From NCBI GenBank assembly GCA_021815305.1, contig JAKAHC010000004.1, positions 129,343-193,342 of the forward strand: 64,000 nt of DNA, written 5' to 3'. Source of the stretch: Deltaproteobacteria bacterium. Lineage in GTDB: Bacteria > Desulfobacterota > Deferrimicrobia > Deferrimicrobiales > Deferrimicrobiaceae. The translations under genes and the position numbers were made by a program. The notes beneath the pieces are model-generated. The model was not told the DNA's origin, did no database searches, and saw only the letters and a program-made list of their open reading frames with translations. Positions 8,831 to 26,349 of this stretch are shown here, piece by piece; position 1 is the stretch's first letter; each line of letters starts with the position of its first letter.

Positions 8831-8896
8831 GGCGAAATCATAGTCTCCCCCATTCGCCTTTGTCAACAATCCCGCCACGGGTTACAATCGCACCCG

Positions 8897-9103
8897 ATGA
8901 TCGCCTACTGCGGCTTCTGCTCCGCGCAGAATTTCATCTCCACGGAGCGCCTGGCGGTGCGCGGGGTCCCCCCGCGGTGCTGGGAGTGCGGACGGGAACT
9001 GTCCCTCCCCGGAAAGGGGACGGAACCACCCGGCGAAACCGGGCGGGAACCCCCGGAATCCAACGGGGGCGGGAACGAGGAAAAAAAGGACGGGGGCTCG
9101 TAA
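8897..9103 (+). CDS. putative small zinc-ribbon protein
   Basis: 68 aa with CGFC...CWEC paired Cys motifs; ends 4 nt before the MIPS start; low confidence. Confidence 0.3.
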   Translation: MIAYCGFCSAQNFISTERLAVRGVPPRCWECGRELSLPGKGTEPPGETGREPPESNGGGNEEKKDGGS

Positions 9104-9106
9104 CAC

Positions 9107-10261
9107 ATGCGGAGAATCCGGATCGCGGTGGCGGGTGTGGGGAACTGCGCCAGCGCCTTGCTGCAGGGCATCGAGTTCTATCGGAACACCGCCGGGGCTC
9201 CCCCGGGAGAGTTCGTTCCGGGGCTCATCAACCACGACATCGGCGGCTACCTGCCCGGCGACATCGAGGTCGTCGCGGCGTTCGACATCGACAGGCGGAA
9301 AGTGGGGCGGTCGGTTTTCGAGGCGATCTTCTCCCCTCCCAACTGCACGAAGCGGTTCCACGGGAACATGCCCCCCGGAGGCCCGACCGTCCGAATGGCG
9401 CCCGTGCTGGACGGCGTCGCCCCCCACATGGCGGATTACCCGGAGGACCGCACGTTCCTGCCTTCCTCCGAGCCGCCCTCCGACGTGGTGCGGGTCCTGC
9501 GGGAATCGGGGGCCGAGATCCTCGTGAACTACCTGCCCGTGGGATCGGAAGCGGCGACGCGGTTCTACGCGGAGGCGTGCCTTGCGACGGGGGTGAGCAT
9601 GGTCAACTGCATCCCCGTCTTCATCGCGTCCGCCCCGGCGTGGGCGGAGCGGTTCCGCGACGCCGGGATCCCGATCGTCGGCGACGACGTGAAGTCGCAG
9701 CTTGGGGCGACGATCGTCCACCGCGCCCTGGCCCGCCTCTTCTCGGATCGCGGGGTCCGGCTCCTCCGCACGTACCAGCTGAACACCGGGGGGAACACGG
9801 ATTTCCTGAACATGCTCAACCGGAGCCGCCTGGAGTCCAAGAGGATCTCCAAGACGGAGGCCGTGACCAGCGCGGTGTCGCACGCGGTCGCTCCCGACGA
9901 CGTGCACATCGGTCCCTCCGACTACGTCCCCTGGCAGATGGACAACAAGCTGTGCTTCCTGCGGATCGAGGGGGAAGGTTTCGGGGGGTTGCCGATCGAG
10001 GTGGAGATGCGCCTCTCGGTCACCGACTCGCCGAACAGCGCGGGCGTGGGGGTCGACGCGATCCGGTTCTGCAGGCTCGGGAGGGACATGGGGCTCTCGG
10101 GTCCGCTGCTGGCCCCGTCCGCCTACTTCATGAAGCATCCCCCGGTGCAGTGCGCCGACGACGACGCGCGTCGCGACCTCGAGGAAGTCATCGCGGACTA
10201 CGAAGCGTGGAGACGGACGAAAGAAGCCCGGCCCACGTCTCCGTGCACCTCTCCCACGTAA
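9107..10261 (+). CDS. ino1: myo-inositol-1-phosphate synthase (inositol-3-phosphate synthase), short bacterial/archaeal type
   Basis: 384 aa; MRRIRIAVAGVGNCASALLQGIEFY N-terminal Rossmann fold and conserved MIPS core. Confidence 0.85.
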   Translation: MRRIRIAVAGVGNCASALLQGIEFYRNTAGAPPGEFVPGLINHDIGGYLPGDIEVVAAFDIDRRKVGRSVFEAIFSPPNCTKRFHGNMPPGGPTVRMAPVLDGVAPHMADYPEDRTFLPSSEPPSDVVRVLRESGAEILVNYLPVGSEAATRFYAEACLATGVSMVNCIPVFIASAPAWAERFRDAGIPIVGDDVKSQLGATIVHRALARLFSDRGVRLLRTYQLNTGGNTDFLNMLNRSRLESKRISKTEAVTSAVSHAVAPDDVHIGPSDYVPWQMDNKLCFLRIEGEGFGGLPIEVEMRLSVTDSPNSAGVGVDAIRFCRLGRDMGLSGPLLAPSAYFMKHPPVQCADDDARRDLEEVIADYEAWRRTKEARPTSPCTSPT

Positions 10262-11357
10262 AGGGCGCGGCGACTTCCGGCCCCCGCAGCGACAGCCGCG
10301 CCCGGAGGGAAGAGTCGGAAAGCAGGCGGAACATCGCGTCCGCCAGCCCATCCGGCCCTTCCGGAGCGTAGGCGAGTCCCCCTCCCTCCGCGTCGATCTT
10401 CTCCCCCCAGTATGTCCCCTTCGGCGCCAGGACCGGGATGCCCGCCGACAGGGCTTCGAGGGGGACAAGGCCGAACGATTCATAGATCGAGGGGCAAACG
10501 ACGGCGTCCGCGGCCGCGAACAGGACGGGCATGCCGTCGTGGGGAACGGAGCCCAGGAAGCGGACACCCCCGCCGTCCTCCCCTTTCTGGCCGGCGACGA
10601 CAAGGGACACCTCCCCCTTCCAACGGCCCCGCACCTCCCGGAACGTGTCCAGGGCGACCCGCGCGTTCTTCCCCGCATCCCCGCGGGCGGCAAGAAGGAA
10701 GATCGCCCCGGAGAGGGGCAGACCGATGTACGCCCGGGCGACCTGCAGGGGCAGCAACCGCCGGAACCGGTCGTCGACGCCGGGGGCGATGACGATCCCC
10801 TTCTCCCCCAGGCCGGGGAAAACCGAGCGGTTCCGCTCGAGGTCGTATTCCGAGAAGAACACCACGCGCGCCGCCATCCGCGCCAGCCTCTCCTCCTCCC
10901 TCCTCCGCACGGCGGAGAGGGGATCGCCCCCCGCCGGGCGGCGCGGAGCCTTTCGCGCCTCCACGGTGTGATAGGACAGCACCATCGGCGCGTCGGCGAT
11001 TTTCCCGGTGGCCGAACCGGACATCCAGTAATGGGCGGACACGACGCGGGGCGAGATCCGCTCCCCACGCATCAGCAGGCGCGCTCCCTCCGCGAACCGG
11101 CCGAGGGAATCCCAGGCACCCTGCCGCGTCGGGGGCTCCTTCCACCCGCACGGAACGTGGAAGATCCGCACGCCGGGAAACGGGTCGGTCACCTCCACGG
11201 TCTCGCCCGTGGCGCGCGTCAGGACGTCGGTGCCGATCCCCCGCTGCGAGAGACCCCGGAGCAACCCCCGGAGGAACACGTTCATGCCCCCCGCGAAACC
11301 CTCCCCCGGCTCCTCCATGGGGCAGGTGTGGTAGGAGACGAGGAGGTGCCCGGTCAC
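10188..11357 (-). CDS. GT4 glycosyltransferase, MshA-like (inositol-phosphate glycosyltransferase family)
   Basis: N-terminus LLVSYHTCPMEEPGEGFAGGMNVF...LTRATGE parallels the MshA signature (HTSP...PGTGD.GGMNVY); GT4 C-terminal EXFG...E motif; GTG start overlapping upstream stop (GTGA). Confidence 0.8.
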   Translation of the reverse strand: MTGHLLVSYHTCPMEEPGEGFAGGMNVFLRGLLRGLSQRGIGTDVLTRATGETVEVTDPFPGVRIFHVPCGWKEPPTRQGAWDSLGRFAEGARLLMRGERISPRVVSAHYWMSGSATGKIADAPMVLSYHTVEARKAPRRPAGGDPLSAVRRREEERLARMAARVVFFSEYDLERNRSVFPGLGEKGIVIAPGVDDRFRRLLPLQVARAYIGLPLSGAIFLLAARGDAGKNARVALDTFREVRGRWKGEVSLVVAGQKGEDGGGVRFLGSVPHDGMPVLFAAADAVVCPSIYESFGLVPLEALSAGIPVLAPKGTYWGEKIDAEGGGLAYAPEGPDGLADAMFRLLSDSSLRARLSLRGPEVAAPFTWERCTETWAGLLSSVSTLRSPR

Positions 11358-12346
11358 GGGGAGACCACGATCCGGTACACCAACCGGTCCACTCCGCCGA
11401 GGTCGTACTTGTACCGCTCCGTCCCGCGCAGGAAATCGTACTCGGGCGCCCCTTCGGCGATGGCATCCTCGACGCACTTCGCGATGAGGACAAGCCCGGG
11501 GTTGGCGGCCCGCCGGATCGGATCGTAGCCGGAGTTGTAGAGGAGCAGGCCGCAGCCGGTCCGGAACTGGAACACGGAGGCCACATCCCCCCCGGCCCCC
11601 GACAGGAAGGCAAGCCGGAGCTGGCCGGCGGCGAGGAACCCCTCCGCCACCTCGCGGAAGAACTCCGCCATCCGGTCGTCCATGAACTTTCCCTTGTCGG
11701 GGTGGCTCTTCCGGTGGAGATCGATGAAGGAAGGGAGGTCGGCAACGAGATCCTCCGCCGTGCGCGTCACCCGGACGGAACATCCCGGGAGGAGCTCCGC
11801 GGCCCGCCGCATCTTCCGGCGCAGCTCGTGCCGTTCCTTCTTCCCGAGCCGATCGAGGTACTCCTTGAAGGAGCCCGGCAGGGAAACGTGGGGCGCCCGG
11901 TCCATCACCTCGACCGTGCAGCCGAGCCCCATTTCCCGGCAAAGCCGCGGGAGGATCGCCAGTGCGGGGGATCCCTCGACGAGGCCGGAGAACCGGATCG
12001 GACCGCCGCCCAGTTCCGGCATCCCGAGAGCGAGGAGATCCCTCCAGAACGGTTCCTCGCCCCCGGGGACGACGAGTGCATCGAGATAATCCGCCACCTG
12101 CTCGCTCCCGAGGAAGTTCCACCCGGTCCCCTCGCAACGGCAAAGGAACAGGAGCCCCTCGTCGGCGCCCGCGGCGCGGCGCCCCCAGCGGACCACGCGG
12201 AAATCGCACCCCTGTCCGAAGACGCGATACCACGGGAGAAGAAAGCGGGAGGACAGGAACGGCGACGGACGGGCGCCCAGGGCGTGGAGCGCATTCCACG
12301 CCTCGATCGGGACTTCCTCCACCCGGGACGAGATACGGAGGCTCAA
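11354..12346 (-). CDS. FemAB/CelD-like GNAT-fold acyltransferase (BioF2-like)
   Basis: 330 aa; architecture and motifs of the Acetyltransf_6/FemAB family; translationally coupled to the GT4. Confidence 0.65.
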   Translation of the reverse strand: MSLRISSRVEEVPIEAWNALHALGARPSPFLSSRFLLPWYRVFGQGCDFRVVRWGRRAAGADEGLLFLCRCEGTGWNFLGSEQVADYLDALVVPGGEEPFWRDLLALGMPELGGGPIRFSGLVEGSPALAILPRLCREMGLGCTVEVMDRAPHVSLPGSFKEYLDRLGKKERHELRRKMRRAAELLPGCSVRVTRTAEDLVADLPSFIDLHRKSHPDKGKFMDDRMAEFFREVAEGFLAAGQLRLAFLSGAGGDVASVFQFRTGCGLLLYNSGYDPIRRAANPGLVLIAKCVEDAIAEGAPEYDFLRGTERYKYDLGGVDRLVYRIVVSP

Positions 12347-12368
12347 ACCTCTCCCCTGTCCCGCACCT

Positions 12369-13022
12369 TCATCGCGAAGTCCCGGCCGCCTCCTTGGACG
12401 GTGGGGAGGACGGGGAAACGATCCCGGCCTCGATCAGCTTCCGTCCCGCTTCCGAAGCGACGGTGTTGGCGGCCGAAAACAGCGCCTCGCGGGCGCCATC
12501 CGGGGTGACGAAGGCGTCTCCCAGGGAAGTGCTGCTGGTGATCGTGCTCACCCACGGCGCGGACAGGGTGGAACCGGCGGCTGAAACGGCAACGGAGACG
12601 GTTGCGTTCATTTCCACGTGCAACATGCCGCTCCTCCGGGCATCCACCTCGAACCGGTGGACGCTTCCCGAGATCCGCACGGGCACGGCCGGGGGAACGT
12701 CCGCGCCGCCCCTGACCCGAACCACGGGGACACCCTTCTCCATCAGGGCGTCGGCCACGAGATCGGCCATCGCCCTCCCCGGATCGCCTTTCCACATGAT
12801 TTCGCGCACCTGGTCGTAGTCCCTCCCGACGACGCCGGGGGAACCGGAGGAGGCATAGGAGAAGTCCATCACCGCGGCCTGCGGCGCGCCGGGAGGGGTT
12901 GCCGCGGGCCCACCGGGCCGGGAGAGGTCCCCCGGGACATAGAGCCTGCTGCCCGTTGCGCAGGAGGAGAGGACCATCAACGGAACGAACAGCGCAAGCA
13001 GCCTCGAGAAGTTGCGTATCAC
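12369..13022 (-). CDS. putative lipoprotein (LpoB/CsgG-like fold suggested)
   Basis: GTG start; signal/lipobox RLLALFVPLMVLSSC; the segment AVMDFSYASSG...GRAMADLVADALMEKGVPVV resembles TolB-N/LpoB-type domains. Confidence 0.4.
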   Translation of the reverse strand: MIRNFSRLLALFVPLMVLSSCATGSRLYVPGDLSRPGGPAATPPGAPQAAVMDFSYASSGSPGVVGRDYDQVREIMWKGDPGRAMADLVADALMEKGVPVVRVRGGADVPPAVPVRISGSVHRFEVDARRSGMLHVEMNATVSVAVSAAGSTLSAPWVSTITSSTSLGDAFVTPDGAREALFSAANTVASEAGRKLIEAGIVSPSSPPSKEAAGTSR

Positions 13023-21855: not shown

Positions 21856-23267
21856 TCAAGGGAGCGCGGGCCGACCCTCCAGCACCTCCCGGATCAGCTC
21901 CATCGGCGATCCGGCCGGCACGAACCCGTGCCCCTGCTCGTGCGGGGCAACCAGCCTGTCCCCCAGCGTTCCCGTCGCGCGGCGGAGATCCGCCCCCGCG
22001 ACAAGGTAGTCGCGCCGCGCGCGTGCCAGGTTCCCCCGCGCCTGCGTGAGGTTGAACTGCGCGTCGTCCACGTCGAGGCGGGTCTTCACGCCGTACTCGT
22101 ACCCCGTTTCCGCCATCGCCACGAGCCTCTCCGCCTGGCCGACCGTTCCGGATAGCGCTTCCACGGTTTGCCCCGCTTCCCGCACCGCGTTCACGGCGTT
22201 GCGCACCTCGAGGGCGATGGAATCGCGCTGCCGCGCCTCCTCGATACGGAGGGTGTTCACGTCGCTCCCGGCCTGGGCGACCCTCCCCCGCGTGCGGAAT
22301 CCGTCGAACAGGGACCAGGAGGCGAACACCCCGGCCGACCACGACTTTCCCCGGACGTCGAACGCGCCGAGATCCAGGTCCTGGTATCCCAGGGCCGACT
22401 GGAAGGTAAGCCGCGGCTTGTTCCCCGCCCGCGCGATGGTCAGCAGTTCCCCGGCGATCCCGAGCCGGTGCCGAAGGTCCGCGAGCTCCGGCCGGCTCCG
22501 CATCGCCGTCCCGAGGGCCTTCCGGTAATCGGGGGGTTCACCGACGACCACGGACAGGTCCCCCTGCGCGTCCACATCCCGCCCGTCCCGCCCGAGGAGG
22601 AAGCGCAACCGTTCCCGGGAAATCCGGACGAGGTTCGCCGTGCGCAGCACCTCGGGCTCGGCGTTCTGCAGCGCGACCTCCGAGGCCAGCACGTCGTAGT
22701 CGGTTGCGGTCCCCGCGGCGTACCGCTTCCGCGCCTCGTCGAGGTGCCTCGCTTTCTGCTCGCGGTTTCCGAGCGCAATGCGGGAGAGTTCCTTCGAAAG
22801 GAGCACGTCGTGAAACGCCGCGTACGCCTCCCGGAGGACGCCCAGGCGAGCGGTCCGCACCTGGTCGTCCGCTGCGGCCAAACCCACTTTCGCCGCGCGG
22901 ATTCCCGCAGACACCACGCCCGAGGAGTAGAGGGGCTGGGACATTTCCAGTTGCACCGCGTACCGGTTGCTGCCGGGGGGGATGCCGAACACCGCCTGGG
23001 TCTCGTCGAAGGCCCGCTGCGCTCCCGCCGTTCCGAGGAGCTGGGGGAGGGCGGCGGCGCGCTCCTCGACGTATTTCCCCGTCAGGCGGGCCCGCTGCTC
23101 GACCGCCTTCTTCAGGTCCCGGTTGTTCGCAAGGGCCGCGCGGAGGGCGTCCTCCAGCGTCAGCACCTCCACCCCGGAGGGACCCTCCGCGGCGCAGGCG
23201 GGGGGGACAAGGGCCGCGGTCCCCGCGCAAAGCGCCAGGAGGAGCGCTGCCGCGGCCGTACGGGACT
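21856..23267 (-). CDS. TolC-like outer membrane efflux factor (OMF), in frame with upstream RND gene
   Basis: About 470-aa C-terminal part of the 1496-aa ORF; begins with a signal-peptide-like KGKSRTAAAALLLALCAGTAALVPPACAAEG at an in-frame GTG; typical OEP repeats follow. Confidence 0.75.
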
Positions 23268-26200
23268 TTCCTTTCACCTTCCGCCGCGCCCAGTCCCCGA
23301 AATCGTCGAGGAGGGTGTACACCACGGGGACCACGAGGAGCGTGAGCATCGTCGACGTGATGAGCCCGCCGATGACGGCGCGCGCCATCGGCGCCCGCTC
23401 CTCCGCGCCCGCCCCGATGGCAAGCGCCAGGGGCAGCATGCCGAAGATCATCGCGAGCGTGGTCATCAGGATGGGCCGCAACCGCGTCCGCCCCGCTGCG
23501 ATCACGGCCTCCGTGCGGTCCATTCCCCGGTGTTGCAGCACCTTTGCGAAGTCCACCAGCAGGATCGCGTTCTTGGTCACCAGCCCCATCAGCATGATGA
23601 GTCCGATCAGGGACATGATGTTGATCGTGTCCCCCGTCAACAACAGCATCCCGGCCATTCCGACGATGGAGAGCGGAAGGGACAGCATGATGGCCAGCGG
23701 ATCGATGAACGACTCGAACTGCGCCGCGAGGATCAGGTAGACGAAGATCACCGCGAGCAACAGCGCCTCGGCCATGTACCCGAACGACTCCACCATGTCC
23801 TCTCCTTCCCCGGTGAAGGCCACCCTGTACCCCGGCGCCATCGGCATGCGCGCGGAGACCTCCCGGACCTTTTTCATCGCCTCTCCCAGCGGCAGTCCGT
23901 CGAGATTCGCGGAGAGGACCACCTCGCGCGTCAGGGCCTGGCGGTCGATCTCGGAGGGCGTGTCGCTCAAGCCGTACCGCGCGACGGCGCCCAGCGGCAC
24001 GAGGGCCACCCCTTCCGGGCGGCTGACCGCCAGCCGGAGCCGTTCCACCTGGGAGGGATCCTTCCGCAGGTCCGACGGGAGCCGCACGCGGACGTTCACC
24101 GCGTCGCCGTCCCGGTCCTCGTAGGTGGTCACCGCCTGTCCGCCCACCAGGGCGCCCAGGGTGCGCGCGATCCCCCCCGTGTTCACTCCCAGGTCCGCCG
24201 CCCGCTTCCCGTCCACCTTCAGGCGGTATTCCGGGATGTCGTGCTCCAGCGTCACCTCGAGGTCGACGATCCCGGGGATCTTGTAGATCTCCGCCTTCAG
24301 CGCGGCCGCGTACTTCTTCAGGAGATCGATGTCCTCGCCCCGCACGGCCACGTTGAACGGCTTGTCCCCCGTGACCCTGCCCACCTCCACGATCGCGGGG
24401 AGAATCCCCGGGATTCCATCGAGCCGCCTGCGGACCTCCTGCTGGATCGCGTCCTGCCGGCGCTTCCTGTCCCGCTTCTCCCCGAGCTTCACGTACACCA
24501 TCCCGTCCCGGACCGTCCCCGTGTCTCCCGCACCGATGGTCGCGAAGGTGCTGCGCACCTCGGGGATCCGGCGGATTTCCGCGAGAACGGCGTCGATGCG
24601 CCCCCGTGTTTCCTGGAGGGAGGCGTCCGGGGAGGTCTTGAAGTTGATCTGGAATTCGGCCCGGTCCACCGGGCTGAAGAATTCGGTCTTGAGGGATCCG
24701 AAGGCGAACAGGCCGCAGGCGAACGTAAACGTCGCCAGCAACACGATCGTCTTGCGGTGGCCAAGCGCCCACGAGATCACCCCGCGGTACCGGTCGGCCG
24801 CGCGGTCGAACCCGTCGTTGAACCGGTCGAGAATGCGGGCGAGCAGGTGCCTCCTTCCCGTCCGGTCGATGTCCGGGTCGTGCCAGCGCGAGGAGAGCAT
24901 CGGGTCCAGGGTGAACGAAACGAACAGGGAAACCAGGACGGCGAACGCCACGGTAATGCCGAACTGGAAGAAGAAGCGGCCGACGATCCCCTTCATGAAC
25001 GCCACCGGGACGAAAACGGCCACGATGGAAAAGGTGGTCGCCAGGACCGCCAGGCCGATCTCGGAGGTTCCCGCGGCGGCGGCTTCGTAGTGGTCCTGGC
25101 CGTGTTCCAGGTGGCGCACGATGTTTTCCCGCACGACGATGGCGTCGTCGATGAGGAGCCCGATGGCCAGCGAGAGCGCCATGAGCGTCATCACGTTGAG
25201 CGTCATCCCCATGAAGTTCATGACGATGAACGAGGAGATGACCGAGATCGGCAGGGTGAGCCCGGTGATCACGGTGGAGCGCCAGGAGTTGAGGAAGCAG
25301 AACACGATGAAGACGGTGAGCAACCCCCCCAGGACCAGCGTCACCTGGACGTCGTGCACGGAATCACGGATTTCCGTCGAGGCGTCCCGCACCATCTCGA
25401 TCCGCGTCCCCGCGGGAAGATCCGGCTGCAGACGCCCGATCTCCTTTTTCACGGCGTCCACCACGGACACGGTGTTGGCGCCCGACTGCTTCTGGATGTT
25501 GAGAGCGACCGCCGGAACGCCGTTGACCAGCGCCAGGGACCGTTGCTCCTCGATCCCGTCCACCACCTCGGCGACCTCCCCCAGCTTCACCGGCCTGCCG
25601 TTGCGCCCTCCGATGACCATATCGGCGAATTGCGGGACCTCCACGGGTTTTCCCGAGATGCGCAGCGGGAACTCCGAACCGTCCCGCGTAATCCTGCCCA
25701 GGGGGGTGTTCACGTTTTCCGATTGCAGCCCCGAGATCACCTCGTCCACGCCCATCCCGAGCGCCTCGAGCCGCGGCTGATCGATCCTCACGTTGACTTC
25801 CCGCTTGGAGGCGCCGATCAGGTCGACCTTCCCGACGCCGGGGATGTTCTCGAAGCGCCGCTTGACCTTCTTCTCGACGAGGGTGGTCAAGTCCCTCGGG
25901 GACAGGGCGTCGGACCGCACCGCCAGGGAGACGATGGGGGCCGCCGCGAAATCGAGTTTCTGGATGATCGGCTCCTCGATCCCCTGGGGCAGCTCGCCCC
26001 GGATGGCCGCCACCTTGGCGCGCGTCTCCTGGGCGCCGTCGTTCAGCCGCACCTCGAGCTGGAACTGCACGACGACCGTGGAGACGCCCTCGCGGGAGAT
26101 GGAGAGGACCTTCTTGACCCCGGCGATCGGGTTGACGGCCTCCTCGATCCGCTTGCTCACTTCCCGCTCGACGCTTTCCGGGGAGGCGCCGGGGAACTTC

Positions 26201-26346
26201 GTGACGACCGTGACCACGGGGATCTCGACGTCGGGGAACATGTCCACCGCAAGCCGCTTGTAGGAGAAGATCCCGAGCGTCACCAGCGCGAGCATCATGA
26301 CGGACGCGAAGATGGGTCGGCGGATGGAGAGGTCCGAGAGAAACAT
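23268..26346 (-). CDS. RND efflux pump inner-membrane transporter (HAE1/AcrB family); no stop codon before the OMF segment
   Basis: N-terminal MFLSDLSIRRPIFASVMMLALVTLGIFSYKRLAVDMFPDVEIPVVTV... is AcrB-like; 12-TM RND body; ORF continues uninterrupted into the OMF. Confidence 0.88.
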
Positions 26347-26349
26347 CGG

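Follow-up and report, generated by a model that had tools for sequence, protein, structure and literature searches.

A GNAT and MshA-type glycosyltransferase gene pair, convergent with inositol phosphate synthase in Deferrimicrobia, as a candidate for a mycothiol-like pathway

Results and Discussion

Organization of the locus and its two-gene core

In the 64,000-nucleotide stretch of contig JAKAHC010000004.1 of a Deltaproteobacteria bacterium (Deferrimicrobia) analysed in the current work, and referred to below as the window, a gene for myo-inositol-1-phosphate synthase (MIPS) lies convergent with a minus-strand set of genes encoding a lipoprotein, a member of the Acetyltransf_6 family (named GNAT6 here) and a glycosyltransferase (GT) of the MshA type (Table 1). 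GNAT6 followed by the MshA-type GT constitutes a two-gene core which, in the lineage of the window, is coupled to MIPS, and which is discussed below as part of a tentatively proposed mycothiol-like pathway.

All four genes were retrieved, from a listing of open reading frames (ORFs) and by direct reading, at the positions assigned to them in an earlier interpretation made from the letters of the window (the sequence-only reading), and the tail-to-tail overlap of MIPS and GT, estimated there at about 70 nt, was measured as 74 nt. This overlap is confined to the C-terminal tails, past the conserved domains of both proteins. The accompanying proposal of a coupled three-gene operon was borne out for one of two junctions: direct reading places the GNAT6 stop codon (TGA, 11356-11354) and the GT start codon (GTG, 11357-11355) in a GTGA overlap, whereas the lipoprotein gene, located upstream on the same strand, ends 22 nt before the GNAT6 start, without overlap. 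The TTG start of GNAT6 is preceded by the Shine-Dalgarno-like sequence GGGGAGAGG. For the GT, some gene callers pick an alternative ATG start (376 aa), and the start generating 389 residues is favoured on the grounds that the N-terminus of MshA aligns with its residues 6-13 (LVSYHTCP).

Table 1 Features of the window, with positions counted from its first nucleotide
Feature	Position	Strand	Basis
MIPS (myo-inositol-1-phosphate / inositol-3-phosphate synthase), 384 aa	9107-10261	+	PF01658, TIGR03450
Convergent overlap of the MIPS and GT 3' ends, 74 nt	10188-10261	.	ORF listing and direct reading
GT4 (GT-B) glycosyltransferase, MshA type, 389 aa, GTG start	10188-11357	-	Glyco_transf_4 and Glycos_transf_1, TIGR03449
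GNAT6 (Acetyltransf_6, Fem-like double-GNAT), 330 aa, TTG start	11354-12346	-	PF13480
Lipoprotein, 217 aa, signal peptide and lipobox LSSC	12369-13022	-	Sequence reading
Zn-ribbon ORF, 68 aa, CxxC-x17-CxxC	8897-9103	+	Sequence; stop 4 nt before MIPS start
Sigma-70-like promoter match TTGTCA-17-TACAAT, 5' of the Zn-ribbon ORF and MIPS	8860-8888	+	10/12 matches
ORF, 446 aa	4147-5487	+	
ORF, 366 aa	15468-16568	-	
Stop-to-stop ORF, 1497 aa: AcrB-type RND pump (residues 5-1014) and outer-membrane efflux domain (1278-1460)	21856-26349	-	
RpfF-like crotonase and, convergently oriented, a hybrid sensor histidine kinase of 856 aa	29022-32522		
Three consecutive DUF5666 proteins (556, 543 and 283 aa) beside a DUF6502 protein	51990-58955	-	

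Relatives of the locus were collected by scanning one genome per GTDB species with a GNAT6 alignment, which yielded 582 relatives, and the best 80 loci were taken together with 10-kb flanks. In 78 of these 80 loci, tblastn located an MshA-like GT downstream of GNAT6 on the same strand, with a gap of no more than 150 nt in 70 of them, and, since the loci had been chosen on GNAT6 alone, the pattern of neighbours is not an artefact of selection. The identities of GNAT6 and GT to the window proteins co-vary over the loci (Spearman 0.82). The carriers of the pair belong to at least eight phyla and include members of Deferrimicrobia, Eremiobacterota/Vulcanimicrobiota/Xenobia, Rokubacteria/Methylomirabilota, Thermodesulfobacteriota/Syntrophaceae, Nitrospirota, Nitrospinota, Planctomycetia, Acidobacteriota and Chloroflexota, the latter represented by Dehalococcoidia, SAR202, Anaerolineales and Limnocylindria. 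An identical gene order, including the convergent MIPS overlap, occurs in Deferrimicrobia-type loci down to approximately 50% identity (an overlap of the 74-nt type is also present in loci L014 and L086), and a gap of about 50 nt takes the place of the overlap in Vulcanimicrobiota. The arrangement is thus not due to chance, considering that the order recurs in the Deferrimicrobia-type loci and that the GNAT6-GT adjacency is seen in nearly all loci taken. When 1.84 billion cluster representatives were searched with a profile, 2,159 clusters of the GNAT6 family were retrieved at E <=1e-30.

Two local variants of the arrangement were noted. In the Anaerolineales loci L032, L037, L038 and L054, an aldo/keto reductase gene (PF00248, E 4e-84) is located in the interval of about 1 kb between GNAT6 and GT, and in L038 and L054 a PIG-L deacetylase gene lies 3' of the GT. 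Locus L084, on a contig of 1.56 Mb, contains at its positions 10001-10975 a GNAT6 member that is 43% identical to the Vulcanimicrobiota query P0280 and has no GT partner, being flanked on one side by genes for a Prok-JAB protein and an unannotated 338-aa protein, and on the other side by a LysR regulator gene.

MIPS and the sequences upstream of it

The MIPS protein matches PF01658 (E 1e-34) and aligns with TIGR03450 over positions 1-355 of 355, with a score of 424.6 bits that falls short of the cutoff (638). By homology, it would produce 1L-myo-inositol-1-phosphate and would therefore be the supplier of the acceptor proposed for the GT. The short Zn-ribbon ORF directly preceding MIPS, for which a Pfam scan returned no match, is kept beside MIPS in most Deferrimicrobia-type loci (55-64% identity) and is possibly co-transcribed with it. 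The region contains two promoter-like sites, where shuffled sequences would lead one to expect 0.2; the site listed in Table 1 is a match to the consensus only. In Rokubacteria, an FmdB-type Zn-ribbon gene is situated directly upstream of GNAT6 in 16 loci; homology between this gene and the Zn-ribbon ORF of the window was considered and rejected, as the two share a CxxC match only and are otherwise unrelated.

The glycosyltransferase is of the MshA type

The GT consists of the two domains of a GT-B enzyme of family GT4 (Pfam Glyco_transf_4 and Glycos_transf_1). A search with the MshA model, which the sequence-only reading had put forward as a check, identified TIGR03449 as the top NCBIfam family of the GT (E 5e-42), although below cutoff, with a full-length alignment of residues 6-374 to positions 4-395 of 406. 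At 144.1 bits this match is ahead by a factor of two of the runner-up family, which attains 72 bits and covers the C-terminal half only, while the models of sucrose-phosphate synthase (TIGR02472, 32.5 bits) and BshA (34.5 bits) align with the C-terminal part. Among PDB sequences, the top match is Corynebacterium glutamicum MshA (3C48/3C4Q, E 5e-32), followed by the sucrose-phosphate synthase Tll1590 (6KIH, E 1e-22), and PimA structures are present among the weaker matches (E 1e-7, C-terminal domain only). Because the top family and the top solved structure by sequence are both MshA, over the full length, the enzyme is not a generic GT4. Automatic annotation names such proteins either "D-inositol-3-phosphate glycosyltransferase" or plainly "glycosyltransferase".

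In C. glutamicum numbering, the GT of the window retains H9, T10, G23, M24, N25, Y110, H133, T134, K139, R154, R231, K236, E316, G319 and E324, and carries R at the position of K78. Residues K78, Y110, T134 and R154 are said to have been described by Vetting et al. in 2008 as the ligands of the acceptor phosphate in MshA. The four UDP-binding residues R231, K236, E316 and E324 are all conserved, the roles of these and of H133 in MshA having been reported previously (PMC4506291, PMC2628429). The sequence-only reading had emphasized that the N-terminus of the GT parallels the MshA signature; this likeness stands, yet the HT.P...GGxNVY motif also occurs in sucrose-phosphate synthases and hence indicates a phosphorylated sugar acceptor in general rather than inositol phosphate specifically. 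It is the GGMN form of the motif, as opposed to GGQN in sucrose-phosphate synthase, together with the ranking of the models, that favours the MshA type. From the MshA-like sequence, the conserved residues and the gene context, we infer that the acceptor would be inositol phosphate and the donor most likely UDP-GlcNAc.

An enzyme resembling sucrose-phosphate synthase, acting on some other phospho-sugar acceptor and operating with GNAT6 in the synthesis of a different (acylated) sugar solute, the adjacency of MIPS being secondary, would be compatible with the rank of Tll1590 as the second solved structure, with the N-terminal motif and phosphate-binding residues that the two enzymes have in common, and with the fact that no MIPS gene lies within 10 kb of the pair in most Chloroflexota and Rokubacteria loci. 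Such an assignment is nevertheless improbable in view of the low and partial score against TIGR02472 set beside the full-length MshA match, the retention of GGMN, and the recurrence, in independent arrangements, of MIPS, inositol-monophosphatase-family, PIG-L and MshD-like genes as neighbours (see below).

The MshA residue set is retained in all partner GTs of the other loci, whose scores against the MshA model range from 42 to 347 bits, those from Dehalococcoidia, Rokubacteria and Nitrospinota attaining 268-347 bits. Identity to C. glutamicum MshA is 28% for the Deferrimicrobia GT and 24% for that of Vulcanimicrobiota, compared with 33-39% for the partners checked from Dehalococcoidia, Rokubacteria and Nitrospinota. 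Considering that the Deferrimicrobia and Vulcanimicrobiota enzymes are the most diverged from MshA, the product formed in these lineages may differ, and one possibility, by analogy with the ester chemistry of MprF-type enzymes, is that the lineage of the window would make an O-aminoacylated or acylated glycosyl-inositol.

GNAT6 has a Fem-like double-GNAT fold

GNAT6 belongs to Pfam family PF13480 (Acetyltransf_6, E 3e-29), and its sole NCBIfam match is a weak one to the crotonyl transferase BspF (E 0.005). No relative was found among PDB sequences, either with the single sequence or with a 60-sequence profile. The window protein scores 15.5 bits against Pfam FemAB_like (PF04339, threshold 27), and FemAB (PF02388) was not reported for it, whereas a Vulcanimicrobiota orthologue passes the FemAB threshold (25.7 versus 24 bits). 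Homologues are automatically named "CelD/BcsL" cellulose acetyltransferases (JGI).

An AF2 model built from the 60-sequence alignment (pLDDT 95, pTM 0.91) comprises two GNAT domains, in keeping with the Fem-type fold, in which the substrate cleft lies between the domains. In a Foldseek comparison, transferases that depend on aminoacyl-tRNA head the list: first Sbb17/Sba18 (E 2e-12, 18% identity), which aminoacylate the amino sugar of streptothrisamine (PMC12945691), and then FemX of Weissella viridescens and Staphylococcus aureus, FemA, and the domains of MprF that act as aminoacyl-phosphatidylglycerol synthase; the top matches have a probability of 1.00 and TM-scores of 0.57-0.72. The acetyl-CoA-binding tandem GNAT 2WPW also ranks among the top matches (E 1e-10, TM about 0.5), and the CoA-using tandem GNATs VipF and glucosamine N-acetyltransferase 5KF1 occur lower in the list. 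The earlier suggestion that the partner of the GT is a FemAB-family protein is consequently upheld at the level of an Acetyltransf_6 protein with a Fem-like double-GNAT fold, as judged by Pfam, AF2 and Foldseek.

Enzymes of the Fem class share a double GNAT fold, the second domain of which carries a basic helix for tRNA binding, and their catalytic Lys comes after an aromatic residue (F304-K305 in FemX, F328-K329 in DhpH-C); one of them, Orf11, performs the Gly-tRNA-dependent aminoacylation of the streptothrisamine amino sugar (PMC12945691). In 60 diverse GNAT6 homologues, Y312-K313 and a basic helix spanning K170-R181, with K170, R172, R177 and K178, are invariant, and on sequence these elements resemble the catalytic aromatic-Lys pair and the tRNA-binding helix, respectively. 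The donor of GNAT6 would, most plausibly, be an aminoacyl-tRNA, a prediction that draws on the ranking of the modelled fold, on the gene context and on the finding that clusters bearing an MshD-like gene contain no other candidate for a ligase.

The same MIPS-fed glycosyl-inositol route could alternatively employ a GNAT6 that uses acyl-CoA, so that an N- or O-acylated product lacking an amino acid would serve as compatible solute or as precursor of a glycolipid or lipid head group. Pfam classifies the domain as an acetyltransferase (GNAT), BspF is the only NCBIfam match, 2WPW, VipF and 5KF1 appear in the fold list, the loop R279-AAN-P-G284 resembles GNAT motif A, and O-acylation would fit a window in which no deacetylase is encoded. 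The highest TM-scores (0.64-0.72), however, all belong to users of aminoacyl-tRNA, the CoA-type tandem GNATs attaining 0.38-0.52, and in clusters containing both MshD-like and PIG-L genes the MshD-like enzyme would be left with no amine to acetylate. We regard acyl-CoA use as rather unlikely, although it is the likeliest of the alternatives considered here.

Among the members of the family, P0385, P0393, P0405 and P0468 (approximately 750-810 aa) are made up of two Acetyltransf_6/Fem-like units, each of them complete, arranged one after the other. Family members of about 760 aa had been considered as possible GT-GNAT6 fusions, which was rejected, as they are tandem GNAT6-GNAT6 proteins; by analogy with FemA and FemB, such an architecture would lend itself to adding two residues in succession.

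Genes neighbouring the pair

Neighbouring ORFs of the 80 loci were clustered, cluster representatives were annotated with Pfam and NCBIfam, and neighbours were counted within 10 kb. MIPS (TIGR03450) is located beside the pair in 18 of the 20 loci of the Deferrimicrobia type and in six others (Vulcanimicrobiota and L035). A protein of the inositol monophosphatase family (IMPase, PF00459) is encoded in 9 loci, a PIG-L/LmbE deacetylase in 13 (top match BshB1 at 97-101 bits, with MshB and Mca weaker), and a tandem-GNAT protein resembling MshD in 19 (top match MshD over the full length, 59-158 bits against a cutoff of 163.1). Their arrangement varies among lineages: in the Vulcanimicrobiota loci L040 and L085, the IMPase and MshD-like genes are divergent from GNAT6-GT and MIPS is convergent with it, and in the Dehalococcoidia loci L041, L067, L069 and L083 the order is GNAT6, GT, DUF502, MshD-like and PIG-L. 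A PhnA-like enzyme of the alkaline phosphatase superfamily (TIGR02335, 472 bits, above cutoff) is encoded in nine Rokubacteria/Methylomirabilota and related loci (L027, L030, L031, L043, L047, L048, L052, L053 and L066), in each case directly 3' of the GT; judged from sequence, it may act as the phosphatase that the pathway requires, or it may be a neighbour without relation to it.

The sequence-only reading had asked for a deacetylase and an inositol monophosphatase elsewhere in the genome. Both are present beside the same pair in other phyla, along with the MshD-like GNAT, but neither is encoded within the window, in which tblastn and Pfam searches revealed no PIG-L, MshD-like, IMPase or PhnA-like gene, and no HAD phosphatase was seen near the cluster. 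No ligase resembling CysRS or MshC was detected among the recurrent neighbour families submitted to Pfam and NCBIfam, and a search for rarer conserved neighbours with thiol or redox functions yielded only the aldo/keto reductase and housekeeping genes.

The lipoprotein, which the sequence-only reading had included in the cluster, is indeed encoded on the same strand as the pair but is not part of the conserved module. It has no Pfam or NCBIfam match even at E 10, its single-sequence AF2 model (pLDDT 47.7) is unusable, and among the loci compared its homologues are found in those of the Deferrimicrobia type only. In L018 and L086, genes for a binding protein and a histidine kinase are inserted between the lipoprotein gene and GNAT6, and a gap of similar size separates the two in L008 and L023. 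The inserted genes had been considered as candidate pathway enzymes and were rejected on account of these annotations. As it is confined to one lineage and is separated from GNAT6 in some loci, the lipoprotein is not counted in the system, and is probably a lineage-specific neighbour outside the pathway.

This bears on a role of the locus in the cell envelope, in which GNAT6 would be a CelD/BcsL-type exopolysaccharide (EPS) factor accompanied by a polysaccharide GT, or the GT would act on phosphatidylinositol in the manner of PimA or PIG-A, with MIPS serving phosphatidylinositol lipid synthesis and the lipoprotein being a mark of the envelope. The JGI name of the homologues, the PimA structures among the weaker, C-terminal matches of the GT, and the shared transcriptional direction of the lipoprotein gene are in line with such a role, which is nonetheless quite improbable: Pfam scans revealed no cellulose synthase, EPS or Wzx/Wzy genes in the window, cellulose synthase and EPS genes were likewise not found in the neighbourhoods of the relatives examined, and no CDP-alcohol phosphatidyltransferase or phosphatidylinositol phosphate synthase was detected among the scanned window ORFs or in the annotated neighbourhoods of L001, L085 and L086. 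Moreover, neither a signal peptide nor a membrane segment was recognized in the GT and GNAT6 sequences read, the lipoprotein is conserved with the pair in a single lineage and set apart from it by inserted genes in some loci, and the neighbours in other phyla are cytoplasmic small-molecule enzymes. The circumstances that the sequence-only reading had named as contrary to its proposal, namely a generic GT4, an EPS locus around GNAT6 and a CDP-alcohol phosphatidyltransferase, were thus not encountered in the window.

The pair is embedded in housekeeping synteny, with FolE, ThrC, HomDH and GlyA in Dehalococcoidia, and with malic enzyme, PlsY and aminotransferases in the window. Production of a secondary metabolite akin to aminocyclitols or aminoglycosides, for which MshA- and MshB-like enzymes would build a pseudodisaccharide (as in paromamine) to be decorated by the Fem-like enzyme (as with Orf11/Sba18 and the streptothricin analogues), is very improbable, because the pair has been conserved vertically, within such synteny, across many phyla and none of the further tailoring, resistance and export genes typical of antibiotic clusters was seen at the loci examined. 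Pairs of a GT4 and a PIG-L enzyme, homologous to MshA and MshB, do act in 2-deoxystreptamine aminoglycoside pathways. The solved fold closest to GNAT6, Sbb17/Sba18, stems from an antibiotic pathway (PMC12945691).

A candidate mycothiol-like pathway

Taken jointly, the loci hold homologues for every step of mycothiol synthesis except that of MshC, and a Fem-like GNAT6 is tied to the GT. For this reason, our preferred interpretation, held with somewhat less than even confidence, is that the locus specifies a mycothiol-like pathway in which GNAT6 does the job of the ATP-dependent ligase MshC. MIPS would generate 1L-myo-inositol-1-phosphate, to which the MshA-like GT would add a sugar, most likely GlcNAc from UDP-GlcNAc, to form GlcNAc-Ins-P. 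A phosphatase and a PIG-L-type deacetylase, such as those encoded next to the pair in other phyla, would then yield GlcN-Ins and expose its amine, to which GNAT6, as its fold and context suggest, would join an amino acid, for which an aminoacyl-tRNA is the most plausible source, producing aminoacyl-GlcN-Ins. In lineages possessing the MshD-like tandem GNAT, this enzyme would N-acetylate the added residue. The predicted end product is a mycothiol-like (acyl)aminoacyl-GlcN-inositol, the amino acid of which would not necessarily be cysteine, and which would hence not necessarily be a thiol. The sequence-only reading had proposed mycothiol-type or glycosyl-inositol synthesis in a non-actinobacterial context, and the MshA-type GT, the Fem-like fold and the cross-phylum neighbours lend support to it.

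A more specific version, in which GNAT6 would be a Cys-tRNA-dependent, Fem-type replacement of MshC, and the pair, acting with the PIG-L enzyme, the phosphatase and the MshD-like protein, would produce mycothiol or a close analogue as the low-molecular-weight thiol of several major phyla that are uncultured or little studied (Dehalococcoidia/SAR202 and further Chloroflexota, Methylomirabilota/Rokubacteria, Eremiobacterota, Nitrospinota and Deferrimicrobia), is unlikely in our estimation.

Several observations weigh against the mycothiol-like interpretation. The GT is only 28% identical to C. glutamicum MshA and remains well under the MshA equivalog cutoff (144.1 versus 462.5 bits), and its N-terminal motif and most of its acceptor residues are common to sucrose-phosphate synthases. 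Likeness of fold leaves the donor of GNAT6 unfixed; Acetyltransf_6 includes the acyl-CoA user BspF, and the R279-x-x-N-P-G284 loop is similar to the CoA-binding motif Q/R-x-x-G-x-G/A. MIPS is not adjacent to the pair in most loci outside Deferrimicrobia, and the 10-kb flanks of most Chloroflexota and Rokubacteria loci are devoid of it. Family members in L078, L080 and L084 have no GT partner, and the last of these indicates that GNAT6 is not always paired. The missing deacetylase, phosphatase and MshD-like genes leave the later steps unsupported for the organism of the window. Finally, as the search for MshC covered neighbour families, this ligase could be encoded elsewhere in the genomes that bear the pair.

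Comparison with known systems

The proposed route resembles mycothiol synthesis (Ino1, MshA, MshA2, MshB, MshC, MshD) in that MIPS would supply inositol phosphate to an MshA-type GT with conserved acceptor and donor residues, and in that related clusters of other phyla contain an IMPase-family phosphatase, a PIG-L/LmbE deacetylase and an MshD-like tandem GNAT. It differs in its non-actinobacterial hosts, in that every component scores under the curated cutoffs of the mycothiol families, in that no MshC (a CysRS paralogue) was seen in the clusters and a Fem-like double GNAT is coupled to the GT instead, and in that the window contains Ino1-like and MshA-like genes only, without MshB- or MshD-like ones.

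The logic of a GT4 and a PIG-L deacetylase followed by the addition of cysteine is shared with bacillithiol synthesis (BshA, BshB, BshC), and the clustered deacetylases score best on BshB1. The cysteine-adding enzyme of that pathway, BshC, also differs from MshC, so that this step can vary between pathways. Unlike BshA, to which its match is weak, the GT of the window has the N-terminal domain for a phospho-sugar acceptor known from MshA and sucrose-phosphate synthase in place of a malate site, and the pair is associated with MIPS and IMPase. In the synthesis of glycosylphosphatidylinositol (GPI) anchors and of paromamine, a GT4 adds GlcNAc to phosphatidylinositol or 2-deoxystreptamine, respectively, a PIG-L-family enzyme removes the acetyl group, and an acylation step follows. 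The window GT, in contrast, resembles MshA, a soluble enzyme acting on Ins-P, and its context is one of housekeeping genes rather than a lipid or antibiotic cluster.

With the CelD/BcsL acetyltransferases, GNAT6 has family PF13480 in common, but cellulose and EPS genes are not found near it, its partner is an MshA-like GT and its neighbours encode small-molecule enzymes. The resemblance to FemABX-type enzymes (Orf11/Sba18/Sbb17) extends to the double-GNAT fold, with the top Foldseek matches at E 2e-12 and TM-scores of 0.64-0.72, and may extend to the aromatic-Lys motif near the C-terminus and to the basic helix that opens domain 2; the amide formation on a sugar amine that is proposed for GNAT6 has a direct precedent among these enzymes (PMC12945691). 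GNAT6 is set apart from them by an identity of 11-18%, by the lack of a PDB sequence match even with a profile and by scores under the Pfam thresholds of FemAB and FemAB_like.

Other features of the window

Encoded in the window are OmpA, the Mla system, and an RND pump together with an outer-membrane factor. This gene content, along with the names of homologues, points to a metagenome-assembled genome of a diderm, high-GC member of Candidatus Deferrimicrobiaceae ("Deltaproteobacteria") and not to an actinobacterium. The pump, which is complete, and the outer-membrane efflux domain lie in a single 1497-aa ORF that represents either a fused gene or a pair of genes sharing one frame with no stop between them, and genes for an HlyD-type adaptor and a TetR protein are located upstream of it. 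The region of the crotonase and the hybrid histidine kinase has a GC content of 0.58 against approximately 0.67; the crotonase matches PRK08788 at 354 bits (above cutoff) and the RpfF model at 224 bits (below its cutoff of 550), and from its sequence the gene pair looks like a DSF-type signalling pair that was possibly acquired horizontally. Neither the 366-aa nor the 446-aa ORF matches a Pfam or NCBIfam family; the former is called with 315 aa, equally without Pfam match, in L001 (the ENA contig on which the region lies), and its place in the related locus L086 is taken by an unannotated ORF of 331 aa. The Rfam scan of the window found no RNA family.

Novelty and implications

Mycothiol-type chemistry has been described as a trait of Actinobacteria, and MshC as a drug target. 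Full-text literature searches retrieved no Fem-type enzyme in a mycothiol-like pathway, no mycothiol-type pathway in the phyla concerned and no description of such a gene pair, with the exception of a preprint reporting mshABC homologues in Binatota, outside Actinobacteria; MshA-like genes outside Actinobacteria have thus been noticed before. What the present analysis suggests as new is a form of mycothiol-type inositol-glycoside synthesis that spans far more of the bacterial phylogeny and employs another acylating enzyme, one that probably depends on tRNA.

If this proves correct, inositol-glycoside, and possibly thiol, metabolism would extend to lineages that are abundant in the environment, and tRNA-dependent Fem-like enzymes would have a role in primary metabolism, beyond peptidoglycan, lipid aminoacylation and antibiotics. 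Approximately 2,000 protein clusters would then receive a better annotation than that of a "CelD/BcsL cellulose acetyltransferase".

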